Positions 1,285-10,730 of a stretch of DNA of 11,904 nucleotides are shown in pieces (positions within the stretch are counted from its first letter, which is position 1; each line of letters starts with the position of its first letter). A program made the translations under genes and the position numbers. The notes beneath the pieces were generated by a model. It saw only the letters and a list, made by a program, of their open reading frames with translations, searched no databases and was not told the DNA's origin. This DNA comes from a virus. The stretch is from the UHGV virus genome UHGV-2157276. One strand, written 5' to 3'.

Positions 1285-1330
1285 AGGTTGCTCCGGGCTA
1301 TGAAATAGAAAAATGAATCCGTTGAAGCCT

Positions 1331-1345
1331 GCTTTTTTATACTAA
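1331..1345. other. attL: lambda-type att common core at the host/prophage junction
   Basis: Exact 15-bp core GCTTTTTTATACTAA. Left flank is ybhC upstream DNA (B arm); right flank 1346-1418 is A/T-rich lambda P'-arm-like sequence running directly into the int stop codon. Confidence 0.8.
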
Positions 1346-1418
1346 GTTGGCATTATAAAAAAGCATTGCTTATCAATTTGTTGCAACGAACAGGTCACTA
1401 TCAGTCAAAATAAAATCA

Positions 1419-2489
1419 TTATTTGATTTCAATTTTGTCCCACTCCCTGCCTCTGTCATCACGATACTGTGATGCCATGGTGTCCGACTTATGCCCGAGA
1501 AGATGTTGAGCAAATTTATCGCTTATCTGCTTCTCATAGAGTCTTGCAGACAAACTGCGCAACTCGTGAAAGGTTGGCGGATCCCCTTCGAAGGAGAGAC
1601 CTGATGCTTTTCGTGCGCGCATAAAATACCTTGATACTGTGCCGGATGAAAGCGGTTCACGACGAGTAGATGCAATTATGGTTTCTCCGCCAAGAATCTT
1701 TTTGCATTTATCAAGTGTTTCCTTCATTGATATCCCGAGAGCATCAACATGCAATGTTGTTGGGATGGCAATTTTTACGCCTGTTTTGCTTTGCTCGACA
1801 TAAAGATATCCATCTACGATATCAGACCACTTCATTTCGCATAAATCACCAACTCGCTGCCCGGTAACAACAGCCAGTTCCATTGCAAGTCTAAGCCAAC
1901 ATGGTGATGATTCTGCTGCTTGATAAATTTTCAGGTATTCGTCAGCCGTAAGTCTTGATCTCCTTACCTCTGATTTTGCAGCGCGAGTGGCTGCGACCGG
2001 GTTTGTTGTTATATGGCCTTCAGCCATAGCCTCTCGGAATGCATCGCTCAGTGTTGATCTGATTAACTTGGCTGATGCCGCCTTTCCCTCGTCTATGTAT
2101 CCATTGAGCATTGCCGCAATTTCTTTTGTGGTGATGTCTTCAAGTGGAGCATCAGGCAGACCCCTCCTTATTGCTTTAATTTTGCTCATGTAATTTATGA
2201 GTGTCTTCTGCTTGATTCCTCTGCTGGCCAGGATTTTTTCGTAGCGATCAAGCCATGAATGTAACGTAACGGAATTATCACTGTTGATTCTCGCTGTCAG
2301 AGGCTTGTGTTTGTGTCCTGAAAATAACTCAATGTTGGCCTGTATAGCTTCAGTGATTGCGATTCGCCTGTCTCGGCCTAATCCAAACTCTTTACCCGTC
2401 CTTGGGTCCCTGTAGCAGTAATATCCATTGTTTCTTATATAAAGGTTAGGGGGTAAATCCCGGCGCTCATGACTTCGCCTTCTTCCCAT
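1419..2489 (-). CDS. int: Lambda-type integrase (tyrosine recombinase), 356 aa
   Basis: ORF starts MGRRRSHERRDLPPNLYIRNNGYYCYRDPRTGKEF and ends REWDKIEIK, matching lambda Int as I recall it. ATG at 2487-2489; overlaps xis by 23 nt as in lambda. Confidence 0.95.
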   Translation of the reverse strand: MGRRRSHERRDLPPNLYIRNNGYYCYRDPRTGKEFGLGRDRRIAITEAIQANIELFSGHKHKPLTARINSDNSVTLHSWLDRYEKILASRGIKQKTLINYMSKIKAIRRGLPDAPLEDITTKEIAAMLNGYIDEGKAASAKLIRSTLSDAFREAMAEGHITTNPVAATRAAKSEVRRSRLTADEYLKIYQAAESSPCWLRLAMELAVVTGQRVGDLCEMKWSDIVDGYLYVEQSKTGVKIAIPTTLHVDALGISMKETLDKCKKILGGETIIASTRREPLSSGTVSRYFMRARKASGLSFEGDPPTFHELRSLSARLYEKQISDKFAQHLLGHKSDTMASQYRDDRGREWDKIEIK

Positions 2490-2685
2490 TTCTGATCCTC
2501 TTCAAAAGGCTACCTGTTACTGGTCGATTTAAGTCAACCTTTACCGCTGATTCGTGGAACAGATATTCTCTTCCATCCTTAACCGGAGGAGGGAATATCC
2601 TGCATTCGCGCACCCATCGACGAACTGTTTCAAGGCTTCTTGGGCGTCGCTGGCGAGCGTTCCACTCCTGAAGTGTCAAGTACAT
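2467..2685 (-). CDS. xis: Excisionase Xis, 72 aa
   Basis: ORF MYLTLQEWNARQRRPRSLETVRRWVRECRIFPPPVKDGREYLFHESAVKVDLNRP matches lambda Xis; ATG at 2683-2685; 3' end overlaps the int start. Confidence 0.9.
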   Translation of the reverse strand: MYLTLQEWNARQRRPRSLETVRRWVRECRIFPPPVKDGREYLFHESAVKVDLNRPVTGSLLKRIRNGKKAKS

Positions 2686-2712
2686 CGCAAAGTCTCCGCA
2701 ATTACACGCAAG

Positions 2713-2733
2713 AAAAAACCGCCATCAGGCGGC
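2713..2733 (-). terminator. Candidate intrinsic terminator on the leftward transcript just upstream of xis
   Basis: On the minus strand, stem CCGCC / loop TGAT / GGCGG followed by TTTTTTC. The plus strand has no U-tract after the stem. Confidence 0.35.
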
Positions 2734-2844
2734 TTGGTGTTCTTTCAGTTCTTCAATTCGAATATTGGTTATGTCTGCATGTGCTATCTGCGCCCATATC
2801 ATCCAGTGGTCATAGCAGTCATTGATGTTCTCTGCTTCGATATC

Positions 2845-2874
2845 TGGCTGAAAGAGGGGGTTATTAAGGCGTGA
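2845..2874 (+). pseudogene. 3'-terminal remnant (about 10 codons) of a ybcO/nin-region gene whose stop overlaps the rusA start
   Basis: Frame ending [13 protein letters not shown] (stop 2872-2874) overlapping GTG 2871 of rusA resembles the C-terminus of DLP12 YbcO as I recall it. Upstream of about 2845 the frame is antisense xis-flanking DNA with no coherent coding signal. Exact boundary is uncertain. Confidence 0.3.
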
Positions 2875-3233
2875 ATACCTACAGCATCACATTACCCTGG
2901 CCTCCGAGCAATAATCGCTATTACCGCCATAATCGCGGGCGCACACACATCAGCGCAGAAGGGCAGGCATACCGCGATAACGTCACCCGAATCATTAAAA
3001 ACGCAATGCTGGATATCGGCCTGGCTATGCCAGTGAAAATCCGTATTGAGTGCCACATGCCGGATCGCCGTCGCCGTGACCTGGATAATCTGCAAAAAGC
3101 CGCTTTTGACGCACTCACCAAAGCAGGTTTCTGGCTGGATGATGCTCAGGTCGTTGATTACCGCGTTGTGAAGATGCCTGTTACCAAAGGTGGGAGGCTG
3201 GAACTGACCATCACCGAAATGGGGAATGAATGA
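2871..3233 (+). CDS. rusA: RusA-type Holliday junction resolvase, 120 aa
   Basis: GTG start at 2871. Protein [26 protein letters not shown]...[12 protein letters not shown] is recognised as RusA (nin-region resolvase of lambdoid phages / DLP12). Confidence 0.9.
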
Positions 3234-3370
3234 TGTTTGAGTTTAATATGGCAGAACTTCTTCGCCACCGCTGGATGCGCCTGCGCTTATATCGTTTCCC
3301 CAGTTCTGTTTTGACCGATTACCGAATACTGAGGAATTACGCCAAAACCCTGACAGGAGCAGGAGTATGA
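3230..3370 (+). CDS. ylcG: Small protein YlcG-like, 46 aa; not in the supplied ORF track
   Basis: ATGATG at 3230-3235 overlaps the rusA stop (3231-3233). Hand translation gives [46 protein letters not shown], stop TGA at 3368-3370. Matches DLP12 YlcG from memory. Confidence 0.6.
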
Positions 3371-3455
3371 AGTCAGAGATAACAATCAACTAATACTGTT
3401 TTATTGATTTTTGCTTGTAATTGGCGTTCTGGTCTGATTTTTGTGGAGTAAGTTG

Positions 3456-3839
3456 ATGCGTGATATTCAGATGGTTCTTGAGCGTTGGGGAGCGTGGGCG
3501 GCTAATAATCATGAAGATGTGACCTGGTCGTCCATTGCCGCCGGTTTTAAGGGATTAATTACTTCAAAAGTAAAATCTCGCCCGCAATGTTGTGACGATG
3601 ACGCGATGATCATTTGCGGGTGCATGGCCCGTCTGAAAAAGAACAACAGCGATTTGCACGATTTATTAGTAGATTATTATGTAGTCGGTATGACATTCAT
3701 GTCACTGGCAGGTAAGCATTGCTGCTCTGATGGTTATATCGGGAAAAGGTTACAGAAGGCTGAGGGTATAATTGAAGGGATGTTAATGGCATTAGATATC
3801 CGGTTAGAGATGGATATCGTTGTTAATAACTCTAATTAA
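3456..3839 (+). CDS. quuD: Late-gene antiterminator Q (QuuD-type), 127 aa
   Basis: ATG at 3456 preceded by GGAG (3445-3448, 7-nt spacer). Protein [24 protein letters not shown]...[11 protein letters not shown]. The ORF track starts at an upstream TTG (3441), which is less likely. Confidence 0.85.
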
Positions 3840-3849
3840 TATGCCAATT

Positions 3850-3891
3850 GTTTACTAAAAATTATTAAAAATGGGGCGTTGAGACGCCCCC
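3850..3891 (-). terminator. Intrinsic terminator for the minus-strand porin transcript
   Basis: Stem GGGGCGT / loop TGAG / ACGCCCC at 3873-3890; on the minus strand it is followed by ATTTTTAATAATTTTT. Confidence 0.5.
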
Positions 3892-3978
3892 AAAAATAAA
3901 GGGTAATATATAACAGAAGGTTTATATAGTTAGAAGCAAGGTTGTGCTCCTAAAGGAAGTGGCTTGAGGGAGCCACTT

Positions 3979-4012
3979 ATATGTTGGGGAGGCAAAGCCT
4001 CCCGCAACATAT
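3979..4012. terminator. Long stem-loop between Q and the nmpC 3' end; possible plus-strand terminator or mRNA-stabilising hairpin
   Basis: ATATGTTG-GGGAGGC / loop AAA / GCCTCCC-g-CAACATAT, a 15-bp stem with one bulge, followed on the plus strand by CTTTTAG. A second hairpin AAGTGGCT-tgaggg-AGCCACTT lies at 3957-3978. Confidence 0.4.
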
Positions 4013-4027
4013 CTTTTAGTAATCAAA

Positions 4028-5110
4028 TTAGAACTGGTAAACCATACCTACAGCAACGATATCATCGGTAGCAACGCCAGATGCTTTCGTGAAATCGCTC
4101 TTATCAATCAGGTTGATTTTGTAATCAACAAAAGTGGACATATTTTTGTTGAAGTAATAGGTTGCACCTACATCAATATATTCAACCAGGTCCTGATCAC
4201 CCCACGCACCCAAGTCTTTTCCTTTAGATTGCAGGTAAGCAACGGACGGACGCAGACCGAAGTCGAACTGATATTGTGCAACTACTTCGAAGTTTTGTGC
4301 TTTGTTGGCAATATGGTTATTACCAAAAACAGTCATGTTCTGGGTTTCAGAATAGGTGGTAGCCAGATAGATGTTGTTCGCATCATATTTCAGACCAGCT
4401 GCCCATACTTCAGCATTTTGACCAGATGCATTCAGGCTGTTGTTACCGTAGATAACCTGATTATTAGTGCGGTCAGATTTAGCATAGGTTGCACCTACAC
4501 CGAATCCTTCATACTCATAAGTAGTGGAGAAACCGAAACCATCACCATTAGCTTCAGTTACGTCAGTGCGGTCATTTTTACCCTGATACTGAGCAGCAAA
4601 GTTCAGACCATCAACCAGACCAAAGAAGTCATTGTTACGATAAGTTGCAACACCTGTGGTGCGACCAGTCATGAATACATCTGTTTGGGTCCAGGTATCG
4701 CCACCGAATTCTGGCAGAACGTCGGTCCATGCACCAATATCGTATGCTACACCGTAGTTACGGCCATAATCGATGGAGCCGTAGTCACCGAATTTCAGGC
4801 CAGCGAAGGCAAGACGGGTTTTATCTTTGGAGGAACCTTGAGATTCAGCGCGGTTGCCTTTGAATTCATATTCCCACTGACCGAAACCAGTCAGTTGATC
4901 GTTGATTTGGGTTTCACCTTTGAAGCCAAGACGGGCATAAGTAGTATCACCATCATCTGCATCATTAGAGGAGAAGTAGTGCTTAGCATTAACTTTCCCG
5001 TACAGATCCAGCTTGTTACTGTCTTTATTATAAATTTCAGCTGCCTGAGCAGACATCGCCATCAGTACTGATGCAGCTACAGCAGAAATTGCCACTGTTA
5101 ATTTTTTCAT
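4028..5110 (-). CDS. nmpC: General-diffusion porin of the OmpC/PhoE/NmpC family, apparently intact (360 aa)
   Basis: Start ATG at 5108-5110 gives [23 protein letters not shown] signal peptide then [16 protein letters not shown]; C-terminus ends VAVGMVYQF with the terminal Phe typical of porins. The ORF track's upstream start (5185) adds 25 non-porin residues. No IS interruption. Confidence 0.9.
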
Positions 5111-5140
5111 CGTGAGCCCTTTTTTTGAACTATTATTAAA

Positions 5141-5170
5141 AAATGATGTCACTGCAAATGATGTCACTGC
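5141..5170. repeat. Perfect tandem direct repeat, 2 x 15 bp (AAATGATGTCACTGC), 31-60 nt upstream of the nmpC start codon
   Basis: Read directly: 5141-5155 and 5156-5170 are identical. Confidence 0.85.
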
Positions 5171-5356
5171 GCGATAAATATTCATCTAATCAATGTGATT
5201 ATTTCAAGATGTAAGTTTTGGTTTCTCATTTGATTTGTGAAGTAGATCTCTATTTTTATCTGAACTTTTTCTATCGAATCCTATTCATGGCTCTTGGCTG
5301 AATAAAAATAAATCTATTAGCCAATTTATATTAATGGCTGTTATTTATAAGTGCTC

Positions 5357-5362
5357 TATAAT
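5357..5362 (+). promoter_or_regulatory. Candidate -10 hexamer of the late promoter (pR'-like)
   Basis: Perfect TATAAT on the plus strand about 190 nt upstream of the terminator at 5552-5584, similar spacing to lambda pR'/tR' (about 194-nt 6S RNA). No convincing -35 found. Confidence 0.3.
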
Positions 5363-5551
5363 TTGAAGATTCAATTTAAACCAGCTAAAAATAACGCTGG
5401 AAATTATTTGTTGGTTATTTGTTGAGATTTGCTTATGTATTTGTAGTGGTGTTTTCAATACTCGGTAGCATTCTCGCAAATATCATTTAGTGGTTTACGT
5501 ACGTAAAAAATTGGTTATGCTGTTAAGAGTGGTTACTTCGTCACACAGCTT

Positions 5552-5584
5552 AAACCCGCCGTCGAGCGGGTTTTTCCATTTTTT
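5552..5584 (+). terminator. Intrinsic terminator upstream of the lysis genes (tR'-like)
   Basis: AAACCCGC / loop CGTCGA / GCGGGTTT followed by TTTTTCCATTTTTT on the plus strand. Confidence 0.6.
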
Positions 5585-5712
5585 GAGTCTCGATATTAGC
5601 TGATAACCCAATACCTGAGTTATTCACTGACTCCGAGTCTGTTACGTTTCTGCTTTTTTGCGATACGTTGTATTCCCTCAATTTACACCCGCTTTGTCTG
5701 CGAGGTGGGGTT

Positions 5713-5928
5713 ATGAAATCCATGGATAAGTTAACAACGGGTGTCGCCTATGGCACCTCAGCAGGTAGTGCCGGTTACTGGTTTTTACAGCTGCTCGATA
5801 AAGTCACGCCCTCACAGTGGGCAGCAATAGGTGTGCTGGGTAGCCTGGTATTTGGCCTGCTGACGTACCTGACAAACCTTTATTTCAAGATTAAAGAAGA
5901 TAAGCGCAAGGCTGCGAGAGGTGAATAA
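5713..5928 (+). CDS. essD: Phage-21-type pinholin with dual-start motif (antiholin/holin), 71 aa
   Basis: ATG at 5713 preceded by [80 protein letters not shown]; two TM segments, Met1-Lys-Ser-Met4 dual start, charged C-terminus. The ORF track start (5668) is upstream with no RBS. Confidence 0.9.
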
Positions 5929-6425
5929 TGCCTCCATCATTACGAAAAGCCGTTGCTGCTGCTATTGGTGGCGGAGCAATTGCTATAGCATCAGTGTTAA
6001 TTACTGGCCCAAGTGGTAACGATGGTCTGGAAGGTGTCAGCTACGTACCATACAAAGATATCGTTGGCGTATGGACTGTATGTCACGGACACACCGGAAA
6101 AGACATCATGCTCGGTAAAACGTATACCAAAGCAGAATGCAAAGCACTCTTGAATAAAGACCTTGCCACTGTCGCCAGACAAATTAACCCGTACATCAAA
6201 GTCGATATACCGGAAACAACGCGCGGCGCTCTTTACTCATTCGTTTACAACGTGGGTGCTGGCAATTTCAGAACATCGACGCTTCTTCGCAAAATAAACC
6301 AGGGCGATATCAAAGGCGCATGTGATCAGCTACGTCGCTGGACATATGCTGGCGGTAAGCAATGGAAAGGTCTCATGACTCGTCGTGAGATTGAGCGTGA
6401 AATCTGTTTGTGGGGTCAGCAATGA
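5928..6425 (+). CDS. rrrD: SAR endolysin (T4-lysozyme-like, phage 21 R-type), 165 aa
   Basis: Start overlaps the holin stop (TAATG). N-terminal Gly/Ala-rich weakly hydrophobic segment [18 protein letters not shown] (signal-anchor-release domain), followed by an E..D..T motif region ([17 protein letters not shown]). Confidence 0.9.
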
Positions 6426-6883
6426 ACAGAGTAACCGCGATTATCTCCGCTCTGGTTATCTGCATCATCGTCTACCTGTCATGGGCTGTTAATCATTACC
6501 GTGATAACGCCATTACCTACAAAGCCCAGCGCGACAAAAATGCCAGAGAACTGAAGCTGGCGAACGCGGCAATTACTGACATGCAGATGCGTCAGCGTGA
6601 TGTTGCTGCGCTCGATGCAAAATACACGAAGGAGTTAGCTGATGCGAAAGCTGAAAATGATGCTCTGCGTGATGATGTTGCCGCTGGTCGTCGTCGGTTG
6701 CACATCAAAGCAGTCTGTCAGTCAGTGCGTGAAGCCACCACCGCCTCCGGCGTGGATAATGCAGCCTCCCCCCGACTGGCAGACACCGCTGAACGGGATT
6801 ATTTCACCCTCAGAGAGAGGCTGATCACTATGCAAAAACAACTGGAAGGAACCCAGAAGTATATTAATGAGCAGTGCAGATAG
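6422..6883 (+). CDS. rzpD: Spanin inner-membrane subunit Rz, 153 aa
   Basis: ATG at 6422 overlaps the endolysin stop (ATGA). N-terminal TM segment [19 protein letters not shown] then coiled-coil-like sequence. From the start of this gene the DNA appears lambda-like. Confidence 0.9.
6642..6824 (+). CDS. rzoD: Spanin outer-membrane lipoprotein Rz1, 60 aa, embedded in the +1 frame of Rz
   Basis: [20 protein letters not shown] lipoprotein signal with lipobox, Pro-rich mature region [16 protein letters not shown]; entirely inside Rz. Confidence 0.85.
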
Positions 6884-6884
6884 A

Positions 6885-6906
6885 GTTGCCCATATCGATG
6901 GGCAAC
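6885..6906. terminator. Hairpin between convergent Rz and bor; possible bidirectional terminator
   Basis: GTTGCCCAT / ATCG / ATGGGCAAC, 9-bp perfect arms, 2 nt after the Rz stop and 9 nt before the bor stop. U-tracts are weak on both strands. Confidence 0.4.
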
Positions 6907-6914
6907 TCATGCAA

Positions 6915-7208
6915 TTATTGTGAGCAATACACACGCGCTTCCAGCGGAGTATAAATGCCTAAAGTAATAAAACCGAGCAATCCATTTACGAATGTTTGCT
7001 GGGTTTCTGTTTTAACAACATTTTCTGCGCCGCCACAAATTTTGGCTGCATCGACAGTTTTCTTCTGCCCAATTCCAGAAACGAAGAAATGATGGGTGAT
7101 GGTTTCCTTTGGTGCTACTGCTGCCGGTTTGTTTTGAACAGTAAACGTCTGTTGAGCACATCCTGTAATAAGCAGGGCCAGCGCAGTAGCGAGTAGCATT
7201 TTTTTCAT
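6915..7208 (-). CDS. bor: Bor outer-membrane lipoprotein, 97 aa
   Basis: MKKMLLATALALLITGC signal with lipobox, then AQQTFTVQNKPAAVAPKETITHHFFVSGIG...; matches lambda Bor from memory. Confidence 0.9.
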   Translation of the reverse strand: MKKMLLATALALLITGCAQQTFTVQNKPAAVAPKETITHHFFVSGIGQKKTVDAAKICGGAENVVKTETQQTFVNGLLGFITLGIYTPLEARVYCSQ

Positions 7209-7498
7209 GGTGTTATTCCCGATGCTTTTTGAAGTTCGCAGAATCGTATGTGTAGAAAATTAAACAAACCCTAAACAATGAGTTGAAATTTCATATTGTT
7301 AATATTTATTAATGTATGTCAGGTGCGATGAATCGTCATTGTATTCCCGGATTAACTATGTCCACAGCCCTGACGGGGAACTTCTCTGCGGGAGTGTCCG
7401 GGAATAATTAAAAACGATGCACACAGGGTTTAGCGCGTACACGTATTGCATTATGCCAACGCCCCGGTGCTGACACGGAAGAAACCGGACGTTATGAT

Positions 7499-7909
7499 TT
7501 AGCGTGGAAAGATTTGTGTAGTGTTCTGAATGCTCTCAGTAAATAGTAATGAATTATCAAAGGTATAGTAATATCTTTTATGTTCATGGATATTTGTAAC
7601 CCATCGGAAAACTCCTGCTTTAGCAAGATTTTCCCTGTATTGCTGAAATGTGATTTCTCTTGATTTCAACCTATCATAGGACGTTTCTATAAGATGCGTG
7701 TTTCTTGAGAATTTAACATTTACAACCTTTTTAAGTCCTTTTATTAACACGGTGTTATCGTTTTCTAACACGATGTGAATATTATCTGTGGCTAGATAGT
7801 AAATATAATGTGAGACGTTGTGACGTTTTAGTTCAGAATAAAACAATTCACAGTTTAAATCTTTTCGCACTTGATCGAATATTTCTTTAAAAATGGCAAC
7901 CTGAGCCAT
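7499..7909 (-). CDS. ybcV: YbcV-like protein (DUF1398 family), function unknown; 136 aa from the best-supported start
   Basis: ORF on minus strand; the ATG at 7907-7909 ([11 protein letters not shown]...) has AAGG 8 nt upstream. In-frame upstream starts at 7951 (ATG) and 8032 (GTG) lack an RBS. AT-rich gene. Confidence 0.7.
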
Positions 7910-8194
7910 TGGTAAAACCTTCCATGTGATACGAGGGCGCGTAGTTTGCATTATCGTTTTTATCGTTTCAATCTGGTCTGACCTCTTTGTGTTTTGTTGA
8001 TGATTTATGTCAAATATTAGGAATGTTTTCACTTAATAGTATTGGTTGCGTAACAAAGTGCGGTCCTGCTGGCATTCTGGAGGGAAATACAACCGACAGA
8101 TGTATGTAAGGCCAACGTGCTCAAATCTTCATACAGAAAGATTTGAAGTAATATTTTAACCGCTAGATGAAGAGCAAGCGCATGGAGCGACAAA

Positions 8195-8401
8195 ATGAAT
8201 AAAGAACAATCTGCTGATGATCCCTCCGTGGATCTGATTCGTGTAAAAAATATGCTTAATAGCACCATTTCTATGAGTTACCCTGATGTTGTAATTGCAT
8301 GTATAGAACATAAGGTGTCTCTGGAAGCATTCAGAGCAATTGAGGCAGCGTTGGTGAAGCACGATAATAATATGAAGGATTATTCCCTGGTGGTTGACTG
8401 A
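8195..8401 (+). CDS. ybcW: YbcW-like small protein, 68 aa, function unknown
   Basis: ATG at 8195 with GGAG 7 nt upstream; [68 protein letters not shown]. Confidence 0.7.
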
Positions 8402-8565
8402 TCACCATAACTGCTAATCATTCAAACTATTTAGCCTGTGACAGAGCCAACACGCAGTCTGTCACTGTCAGGAAAGTGGTAAAACTGCAACTCAATTACT
8501 GCAATGCCCTCGTAATTAAGTGAATTTACAATATCGTCCTGTTCGGAGGGAAGAACGCGGGATGT

Positions 8566-8760
8566 TCATTCTTCATCACTTTTAATTGATGTATATGCTC
8601 TCTTTTCTGACGTTAGTCTCCGACGGCAGGCTTCAATGACCCAGGCTGAGAAATTCCCGGACCCTTTTTGCTCAAGAGCGATGTTAATTTGTTCAATCAT
8701 TTGGTTAGGAAAGCGGATGTTGCGGGTTGTTGTTCTGCGGGTTCTGTTCTTCGTTGACAT
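8566..8760 (-). CDS. ylcI: YlcI-like small protein (64 aa) with predicted ribbon-helix-helix DNA-binding fold
   Basis: MSTKNRTRRTTTRNIRFPNQMIEQINIALEQKGSGNFSAWVIEACRRRL: basic N-terminal tail, beta-strand NIRFP, helix, G-x-N/S turn, second helix. This is the RHH (CopG/Arc/ParD-like) pattern. Confidence 0.7.
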   Translation of the reverse strand: MSTKNRTRRTTTRNIRFPNQMIEQINIALEQKGSGNFSAWVIEACRRRLTSEKRAYTSIKSDEE

Positions 8761-8959
8761 GAGGTTGCCCCGTATTCAGTGTCGCTGATTTGTATTGTCT
8801 GAAGTTGTTTTTACGTTAAGTTGATGCAGATCAATTAATACGATACCTGCGTCATAATTGATTATTTGACGTGGTTTGATGGCGTAGATGCACGTTGTGA
8901 CATGTAGATGATAATTATTATCATTTTGCGGGTCCTTTCCGGCGATCCGACAGGTTACG

Positions 8960-8971
8960 GGGCGGCGACCT
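8960..8971. other. cosN: lambda 12-nt cohesive-end site (GGGCGGCGACCT), flanked by cosQ-like and cosB-like sequence
   Basis: Exact GGGCGGCGACCT preceded by ...GATCCGACAGGTTACG (lambda right end) and followed by TCGCGGGTTTTCGCTATTTATGAAAATTTTCCGG (lambda left end). Confidence 0.85.
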
Positions 8972-9148
8972 CGCGGGTTTTCGCTATTTATGAAAATTTT
9001 CCGGTTTAAGGCGTTTCCGTTCTTCTTCGTCATAACTTAATGTTTTTATTTAAAATACCCTCTGAAAAGAAAGGAAGCGACAGGTGCTGAAAGCGAGCTT
9101 TTTGGCCTCTGTCGTTTCCTTTCTCTGTTTTTGTCCGTGGAATGAACA

Positions 9149-9694
9149 ATGGAAGTCAACAAAAAGCAGCTGGCTGACATTTTCGGTGCGAGTATCCGTA
9201 CCATTCAGAACTGGCAGGAACAGGGAATGCCCGTTCTGCGAGGCGGTGGCAAGGGTAATGAGGTGCTTTATGACTCTGCCGCCGTCATAAAATGGTATGC
9301 CGAAAGGGATGCTGAAATTGAGAACGAAAAGCTGCGCCGGGAGGTTGAAGAACTGCGGCAGGCCAGCGAGGCAGATCTCCAGCCAGGGACTATTGAGTAC
9401 GAACGCCATCGACTTACGCGTGCGCAGGCCGACGCACAGGAGCTGAAAAATGCCAGAGACTCCGCTGAAGTGGTGGAAACCGCATTCTGTACTTTCGTGC
9501 TGTCGCGGATCGCAGGTGAAATTGCCAGTATTCTCGACGGGATCCCCCTGTCGGTGCAGCGGCGTTTTCCGGAACTGGAAAACCGACATGTTGATTTCCT
9601 GAAACGGGATATCATCAAAGCCATGAACAAAGCAGCCGCGCTGGATGAACTGATACCGGGGTTGCTGAGTGAATATATCGAACAGTCAGGTTAA
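9149..9694 (+). CDS. nu1: Terminase small subunit Nu1, 181 aa, full length
   Basis: MEVNKKQLADIFGASIRTIQNWQEQGMPVLRGGGKGNEVLYDSAAVIKWYAERDAEIENEKLRR...; N-terminal winged-HTH. Overlaps the A start by 26 nt as in lambda. Confidence 0.95.
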   Translation: MEVNKKQLADIFGASIRTIQNWQEQGMPVLRGGGKGNEVLYDSAAVIKWYAERDAEIENEKLRREVEELRQASEADLQPGTIEYERHRLTRAQADAQELKNARDSAEVVETAFCTFVLSRIAGEIASILDGIPLSVQRRFPELENRHVDFLKRDIIKAMNKAAALDELIPGLLSEYIEQSG

Positions 9695-10730
9695 CAGGCT
9701 GCGGCATTTTGTCCGCGCCGGGCTTCGCTCACTGTTCAGGCCGGAGCCACAGACCGCCGTTGAATGGGCGGATGCTAATTACTATCTCCCGAAAGAATCC
9801 GCATACCAGGAAGGGCGCTGGGAAACACTGCCCTTTCAGCGGGCCATCATGAATGCGATGGGCAGCGACTACATCCGCGAGGTGAATGTGGTGAAGTCTG
9901 CCCGTGTTGGTTATTCCAAAATGCTGTTGGGTGTTTATGCCTACTTCATAGAGCATAAGCAGCGCAACACACTTATCTGGTTGCCGACGGATGGTGATGC
10001 CGAGAACTTTATGAAAACCCACGTTGAGCCGACCATCCGCGATATTCCGTTGCTGCTGGCGCTGGCTCCGTGGTATGGCAAAAAGCACCGGGATAACACG
10101 CTCACCATGAAGCGTTTTTCCAATGGTCGTGGCTTCTGGTGCCTGGGCGGTAAAGCGGCAAAAAACTACCGTGAAAAGTCGGTGGATGTGGCGGGTTATG
10201 ATGAACTTGCTGCCTTTGATGAGGATATTGAACAGGAAGGCTCTCCGACGTTCCTTGGCGACAAACGTATTGAAGGCTCGGTCTGGCCAAAGTCCATCCG
10301 TGGCTCCACCCCCAAAGTGAGAGGCACCTGCCAGATTGAGCGTGCAGCCAGTGAATCCCCGCATTTTATGCGTTTTCATGTTGCCTGTCCGCACTGCGGG
10401 GAGGAGCAGTACCTTAAATTTGGCGATAAAGAGACGTCGTTTGGCCTCAAATGGACGCCGGATGATCCCTCCAGCGTGTTTTATCTCTGCGAACATAATG
10501 CCTGCGTCATCCGCCAGCAGGAACTGGACTTCACTGATGCCCGTTATATCTGCGAAAAGACCGGGATCTGGACCCGTGATGGCATTCTCTGGTTTTCGTC
10601 ATCCGGTGAAGAGATTGAGCCGCCGGACAGCGTGACCTTTCACATCTGGACGGCGTACAGCCCGTTCACCACCTGGGTGCAGATTGTCAAAGACTGGATG
10701 AAAACGAAAGGGGATACCTTCTGCCCGTAA
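9669..10730 (+). pseudogene. A: Terminase large subunit gpA, N-terminal 350 of about 641 codons, truncated at a deletion junction
   Basis: MNISNSQVNRLRHFVRAGLRSLF...[14 protein letters not shown] then 3 unrelated codons (FCP) and stop. Walker-A-like KSARVGYSK is present; the C-terminal nuclease half is absent. Confidence 0.85.

Follow-up and report, generated by a model that had tools for sequence, protein, structure and literature searches.

A lambda-type int-xis module at the edge of a DLP12-like cryptic prophage, probably cut off from its regulators

Whether an integrase-excisionase gene pair that is still full length can be expressed after the surrounding prophage has lost its regulatory region is the question raised by the left part of the DNA analyzed in the present study, a stretch of 11,904 nucleotides from the viral genome UHGV-2157276 (hereafter, the window). 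In lambda, int is regulated by pI with CII and by pL with N (PMC2951348, PMC5300877). Considering the anatomy of the locus and its relatives, we regard the region, with a probability of approximately three in four, as the relic of a lambda-type module for site-specific recombination, comprising attL, int, xis, pI, and the upstream terminator, on the left border of a DLP12-like cryptic prophage of 14.4 kb that occupies the ybhC-ybhB attachment site. As far as may be judged from the sequence, the int-xis module is most likely silent or nearly so, being left with a promoter that depends on CII and with two upstream terminators in the absence of N.

A lambda-type left end in a 14.4-kb remnant

The int gene, which encodes a lambda-type heterobivalent tyrosine integrase of 356 aa, occupies positions 1419-2489 on the minus strand, and xis, which encodes an excisionase of 72 aa, occupies 2467-2685 on the same strand (both from the list of open reading frames). 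The first-pass annotation had described the two genes as full length with a 23-nt overlap, and its coordinates and description were correct; the shared nucleotides are 2467-2489, and the overlap is the same as that between lambda int (27812-28882) and xis (28860-29078). Gene order, gene lengths, and the overlap are shared with the modules of phages lambda, 434, HK97, and mEp332, to which Int is 98.6-99.7% and Xis 98.6-100% identical, and no base differs from lambda in the attachment core, in the P' arm, in pI and its CII site, or in the terminator upstream. The window differs from these phages in that its module is integrated, in the attL form, in that pL, N, cIII, and cII have been lost, and in a private I155M substitution in Int.

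Regarding the attachment sites, the attL core GCTTTTTTATACTAA, the B-O-P' junction, is found at 1331-1345 on the plus strand as a single exact match in the window. The P' arm of attL, with arm-type Int sites that run into the 3' end of int, follows at 1346-1461 on the plus strand and is 100% identical to lambda 27739-27854, in which the Int-binding region "int 4" (27814-27854) corresponds to window positions 1421-1461. In an alignment with lambda, 434, and the prophage remnant A14, identity to lambda extended over positions 1331-1480 of the window, starting at the core, including the P' arm, and reaching into int, and the sequence diverged leftward. The attL of the window is, thus, canonical, with a bacterial arm beside ybhC on the left and the lambda P' arm on the right. 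The chromosomal gene ybhC, which adjoins the lambda attachment site, forms the left boundary at 1-1284 on the minus strand as an open reading frame of 427 aa, and is annotated at the equal position relative to int in A14, REL606, and ATCC 8739.

The right end of the element was read from collinear copies because the window ends approximately 3.8 kb before it. A scaffold from a metagenome deposited at ENA (L010) aligned with the window over 11,904 of 11,904 bases with three mismatches. The distance between the attL and attR cores in this scaffold is 14.4 kb, which represents the whole element, and to the right of the window it carries a tail-fibre fragment, a tail-fibre assembly gene, an AraC-family regulator, and IS fragments, followed by attR adjoining ybhB. 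An attR with the full lambda-like P arm (sib hairpin, P1, H1, P2, and X1) is present outside the window in L010 and in a second collinear copy, L012. Its core is CAACTTTTTTATACTAA, in which CAACTTT stands where lambda has CAGCTTT and the 7-bp overlap region is unchanged. This single change presumably brings the C site nearer to the published core-site consensus CAACTTNNT. The X2/F/H2 stretch of attR is unlike that of lambda and resembles 434 and HK97, and the variation in attR lies within the range of these two phages. The cis requirements for excision appear to be in place in the collinear copies. attR is located at 15815-16115 in L010 and at 27400-27640 in the A14 locus (L001), and the stem of the sib hairpin in L010 carries a C-to-T change relative to A14.

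The remaining gene content is that of a cryptic lambdoid prophage: attL and attR flank an element from which the immunity region, the replication region, and most morphogenesis genes are missing, and which has no head genes. All of the other sizeable open reading frames of the window could be assigned, namely, to RusA, YlcG, a Q-type antiterminator, an OmpC/NmpC-type porin, a phage-21-type holin, lysozyme, Rz/Rz1, Bor, DUF1398 (YbcV), YbcW, DUF3950 (YlcI), Nu1 (NohD), and a terminase large subunit (gpA) truncated at 353 aa. Neither an Rfam scan nor a tRNA scan produced a match in the window. The terminase large-subunit gene ends after these 353 aa in a fusion to a tail-fibre gene fragment at approximately 10714-10730, and this fusion is another internal deletion, which took all head and most tail genes and is common to A14-type elements. 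The only three differences between the window and L010 (9442, 9448, and 9500) fall within 59 nt inside nohD, and this cluster may have come from recombination with a different Nu1 allele over a short patch. An exact lambda cosN, GGGCGGCGACCT, was found at 8960-8971, 178 nt upstream of the intact Nu1 homologue nohD (9149-9694); a 12-mer with no more than two mismatches is expected by chance approximately 0.5 times, and the match here is exact and correctly placed.

Loss of the regulators and expression of int-xis

The statement in the first-pass annotation that neither pL/N nor cII is present was borne out for the window and also for the entire 14.4-kb element of L010. A tblastn search of the window with lambda N, CII, CI, Cro, CIII, O, P, Q, Exo, and Bet returned nothing (best E = 0.045), and the same ten queries, run as a positive control, matched the lambda locus at 100%. 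Proteins of the N or CII type that are very divergent would be missed by this search, and no unassigned open reading frame of a suitable size is left. No lambda early regulator was found in the complete element of L010, and no candidate activator was present in the Pfam content of the window or L010. Regulators encoded elsewhere in a host genome, for example, by other lambdoid prophages, could act on pI.

Upstream of xis, lambda-like sequence is confined to the 3' part of orf55 (lambda p35) at 2725-2844 on the minus strand (tblastn with lambda orf55, E = 2e-23), which consists of the last 39 codons and the stop codon without a start when compared with the intact copy in A14. The deletion junction lies at 2841-2842, with a 2-bp microhomology (TA), and accounts for the loss of 5,879 bp relative to an A14-type element; the lost stretch starts with the 5' end of orf55 and ends inside ybcO, and the first 16 codons of orf55 are gone. 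Positions 1-2842 of the window correspond to A14 L001 6001-8842 with 0 mismatches, and the window from 2841 onward corresponds to L001 from 14722. This match on both sides of the 5,879-bp gap indicates that the window arose from an A14-type structure by one further deletion. The approximately 5.9 kb between orf55 and rusA in A14 contain DUF2513, an ea22 fragment, a TraR-like gene, a recT'/ren' fusion, nin-region genes, ybcN, ninE, and ybcO. Since recT' and ren' are already fused in A14, pL, N, cI, cro, cII, O, and P were deleted earlier, in the A14-type ancestor. The larger version of the element is present in 20 complete E. coli genomes. The exact xis/rusA junction of the window was absent from 5,426 complete E. 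coli genomes, and an exact-protein look-up placed it in L010 and in the draft genome GCA_017732875.1 (L012).

As an observation on another strain, E. coli C1 (L009 7770-9753) carries a remnant at the same site in which xis abuts 'ninX and 'ybcO-rusA through a different junction. The fusion in C1 is independent, and, therefore, the loss of the whole early region with the retention of int-xis happened more than once.

Of the promoters described for lambda, pI is retained at 2679-2711 on the minus strand and is identical to that in lambda and 434. Its CII site, TTGCGTGTAATTGC (2711-2698), is a TTGC-N6-TTGC repeat that straddles a poor -35 element, GTGTAA (2707-2702), and is placed for a transcript start inside xis. 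A -10 element, TGTACT, is assigned to 2684-2679 on the minus strand from a 17-nt spacer and overlaps the xis ATG (2685-2683). Neither the CII site nor the -35 or -10 differs from lambda, and the phage 434 record annotates "pI promoter; CII-controlled," a CII binding site, and a -35 signal at the equivalent place. Previous studies placed pI in xis and reported that it transcribes int independently of xis (PMC2951348, PMC5300877), and the assigned -10 agrees with this published position.

Immediately upstream of pI and xis, an intrinsic terminator consisting of a hairpin and a T-run is located at 2716-2735 on the minus strand (dG -16.1 kcal/mol, z = -3.3); it is identical in lambda, the phage 434 record lists its counterpart as a terminator (PMID 6305007), and a putative terminator is annotated at this place in HK97. 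The nearest upstream gene oriented in the same direction as xis-int is that for the nmpC/OmpC-type porin, which is intact at 4028-5110 on the minus strand (360 aa, Pfam Porin_1, E = 3.9e-153) and also encodes 360 aa in A14 and L010. Between this gene and xis stand two intrinsic terminators, that before xis and another after the porin gene at 3873-3890 on the minus strand (7 pairs, 6 of which are G-C, and a T-run; dG -14 kcal/mol, z = -3.45).

Taken together, these features fit a reading in which the module has been orphaned. Successive deletions have removed every phage function that normally drives int-xis, the earlier at the recT'/ren' junction taking pL, N, cI, cro, cII, O, and P, and the later 5.9-kb deletion fusing orf55' to ybcO'/rusA. 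The pL/N route, which produces Xis and Int on induction, has been lost, and pI is the only dedicated promoter left, with a poor -35 that needs CII, a protein that the element does not encode. The sequence itself shows the anatomy, the identities, the missing regulators, and the history of deletions, from which silence, the activity of the proteins, and a response to CII are inferred. Transcripts that enter on the same strand from upstream would have to cross the two terminators without N and should largely stop before xis.

The first-pass annotation had further proposed that a superinfecting lambdoid phage could activate the module in trans by supplying CII or Int/Xis. This idea needs correction because the CII route is only half sufficient. 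The -10 of pI overlaps the xis ATG, so that a pI transcript lacks the start of xis and yields Int without Xis, and CII in trans alone should not cause excision. If a lambdoid phage, whether superinfecting or co-resident, makes CII, pI should be turned on and with it the synthesis of Int only. Excision needs Xis. A superinfecting phage of the lambda-int type would bring Xis together with its own Int, both of which could act on the intact attL and attR, and the resident genes would be redundant in that scenario.

An alternative that we consider unlikely is that the module is not fully silent, and that basal activity of pI or leaky read-through of the two terminators provides enough Int, and a little Xis, for rare spontaneous excision. 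Rare spontaneous excision occurs in other cryptic prophages of E. coli K-12. All the cis elements for excision are available, with attL in the window and attR with its full P arm in the collinear copies, and KplE1, a 10-kb remnant without a repressor, still excises in vivo (PMC2951348). Basal, CII-independent activity of pI is conceivable, but pI is of the wild type and unchanged from lambda, and pI transcripts lack the xis start, which would make Xis wholly dependent on read-through of the hairpin of -16 kcal/mol and T-run that separate any upstream promoter from xis. A promoter-like site on the minus strand also speaks for leakage: a sigma-70-like match at 3705-3676 (GTGACA, an 18-nt spacer, and CATAAT; 10/12), which is antisense within quuD and faces rusA and xis. 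This site lies between the two terminators, so the one at 2716-2735 still stands before xis. Moreover, the scan of 1285-5700 found four promoter-like matches against 9.7 expected in shuffled sequence, and the site at 3705-3676, therefore, carries little weight; the same scan flagged no new promoter at the deletion junction. The open-access literature on int-constitutive mutants, basal pI activity, and heteroimmune curing yielded nothing usable.

Integrity of Int and Xis

The module may also be considered from the side of its proteins. Int is identical to lambda Int at 351 of 356 residues without gaps, the differences being I155M, H164P, A245T, I248V, and E264K, and Xis is identical to lambda Xis at 71 of 72 residues, with G59S as the single difference. 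The Xis of the window is 100% identical to those of phages 434, HK97, and mEp332, which makes lambda the outlier at residue 59. Pfam recognizes an arm-binding domain in residues 1-69 of Int (PF09003 Arm-DNA-bind_1, E = 7e-33), SAM-like core-binding domains (PF02899 and PF22022), and the catalytic domain (Phage_integrase, E = 2.5e-40); Xis, as a 72-aa winged-helix excisionase (a recombination directionality factor) encoded upstream of int and overlapping it, matches Exc (PF07825, E = 3.9e-41).

Inactivating substitutions in the catalytic residues of Int had been named in the first-pass annotation as evidence that would speak against a functional module, and none were detected. In an alignment of the window protein with those of lambda, 434, HK97, the isolated phage mEp332, and two other prophage remnants, R212, K235, H308, R311, H333, and the nucleophile Y342 were all retained, and these six residues were invariant against lambda, 434, HK97, and mEp332. 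Among the five differences from lambda, H164P and I248V are common to 434, HK97, and mEp332, A245T is shared with 434 and mEp332, and E264K with mEp332. I155M is, thus, the sole difference between the Int of the window and that of mEp332. It is a conservative change in the core-binding domain and also occurs in the remnants A14 and ATCC 8739, to the Int proteins of which that of the window is identical. No identical Int was found among 50,697 phage records, in which the best match was 99.7%.

With both coding sequences and the cis sites intact, the module should be biochemically competent, although M155, which the remnant lineage carries and the phage records lack, may leave Int with less than full activity. 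This distribution (the window, A14, and ATCC 8739 against none of the phage records searched, with the best phage matches at 99.7%) might suggest that the module is intact in looks only, and that I155M cripples Int and makes the gene a functional pseudogene. We consider this to be very unlikely because the replacement of Ile by Met is conservative, its position is remote from the catalytic residues and not part of the catalytic domain, and no other residue distinguishes this Int from that of an isolated phage. The Int/Xis pair is probably competent and, if ever expressed, could complement lambda derivatives defective in int or xis, or recombine with phages of the lambda-int type that enter the cell.

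Relatives of the element and the retention of int-xis

Objects of this kind, in which lambda int-xis has been left behind within a DLP12-like cryptic prophage at attλ, are already known and common. Contiguous ybhC-attL-int-xis, at a coverage of at least 80%, was present in 1,887 of 5,426 complete E. coli genomes. The closest relatives are the A14-type remnants (A14, NCTC9041, FORC_081, and others), which are 99.8-100% identical across the window, have the same attL and attR, and represent its direct precursor structure; they differ from the window in that they keep the 5,879 bp between orf55 and ybcO and do not have a 15-nt duplication upstream of the porin gene.

The body of the element resembles DLP12 of E. 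coli K-12, with which positions 2841-9976 of the window are 96-98% identical from ybcO to aaaD. The shared genes are rusA, ylcG, quuD, nmpC, essD, rrrD, rzpD/rzoD, borD, ybcV, ybcW, ylcI, nohD, and the truncated terminase gene, and both elements are devoid of the immunity and replication regions. In contrast to the window, which is at attλ with an intact lambda-type int and xis, DLP12 is located at argU and has a different integrase gene, intD, with xisD and exoD as pseudogenes. The nmpC gene of DLP12 is split by IS5, whereas the porin gene in the window is uninterrupted (the region is 96% identical).

The λB remnant of E. coli B and λCr of the Crooks strain (ATCC 8739) share with the window the ybhC-ybhB site and a left end composed of ybhC, attL, int, xis, and orf55, and none of these elements has N, cI, or cII. 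The Xis proteins of λB and λCr are identical to that of the window, and so is the Int of ATCC 8739. A 12.1-kb remnant designated λB was described in the B lineage (PMC4395058), and λB and λCr at ybhC-ybhB were included in a table of large mobile elements, in which ATCC 8739 was entered as Crooks (PMC3032704). To the right of orf55, REL606 carries genes for an ASCH protein, DUF4752, LysC, a different terminase, and acyltransferases, unlike the window, and Crooks/ATCC 8739 differs in that it keeps exo-bet-gam-kil-cIII and has an IS1-bounded end. The identification of the window with the λB prophage of E. coli B was considered and rejected on these grounds, because REL606 has the same int-xis-orf55 left end followed by entirely different genes rightward.

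Regarding the reason for which int and xis have remained intact, the 2,842 bp that include both genes match A14 without a single difference, and an alignment with ATCC 8739 over 2,845 bases showed 3 differences. This degree of identity among remnants, 0 to 3 differences in approximately 2.8 kb, points to a recent common ancestry and gives no evidence of selection for the module, the intactness of which would, thus, reflect recent decay. The opposite proposal, that selection has preserved int-xis to make a helper-dependent island mobile, which a superinfecting lambdoid phage would excise and package, spreading porin and bor as cargo, may draw on the exact cosN at 8960-8971 upstream of an intact nohD, on the intact porin and bor genes, and on the retention of int-xis in several independently decayed remnants. 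It appears highly improbable because the recency of decay already explains the identity of int-xis, int is truncated or IS-interrupted at the same site in other E. coli genomes, the 14.4 kb of the element fall far short of the roughly 37-51 kb that lambda packages, neither a replication module nor a primase or a satellite-type, helper-sensing regulator is found among the genes of the window or L010, and nothing beyond the co-occurrence of att sites, int-xis, and cos supports it. If selection were nonetheless involved, the 14-kb element would be a mobilisable island that spreads porin and bor on superinfection by a phage of the lambda-int type.

On the preferred reading of a recently decayed, unplugged module, the locus has little importance beyond annotation and introduces no new biological principle. 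It provides a clean case, resolved to the base, of the stepwise decay of a lambdoid prophage in which the regulators disappear first and the recombination module at the margin survives them. A strain that carries the element has attλ occupied, which is relevant to strain engineering.

A further observation concerns the porin gene. A 15-nt tandem duplication, AATGATGTCACTGCA / AATGATGTCACTGCG, is located at 5143-5172, 33-62 nt upstream of its start codon. It is present in the window and L010 and absent from A14 and L012, and could alter the function of the porin promoter or leader.
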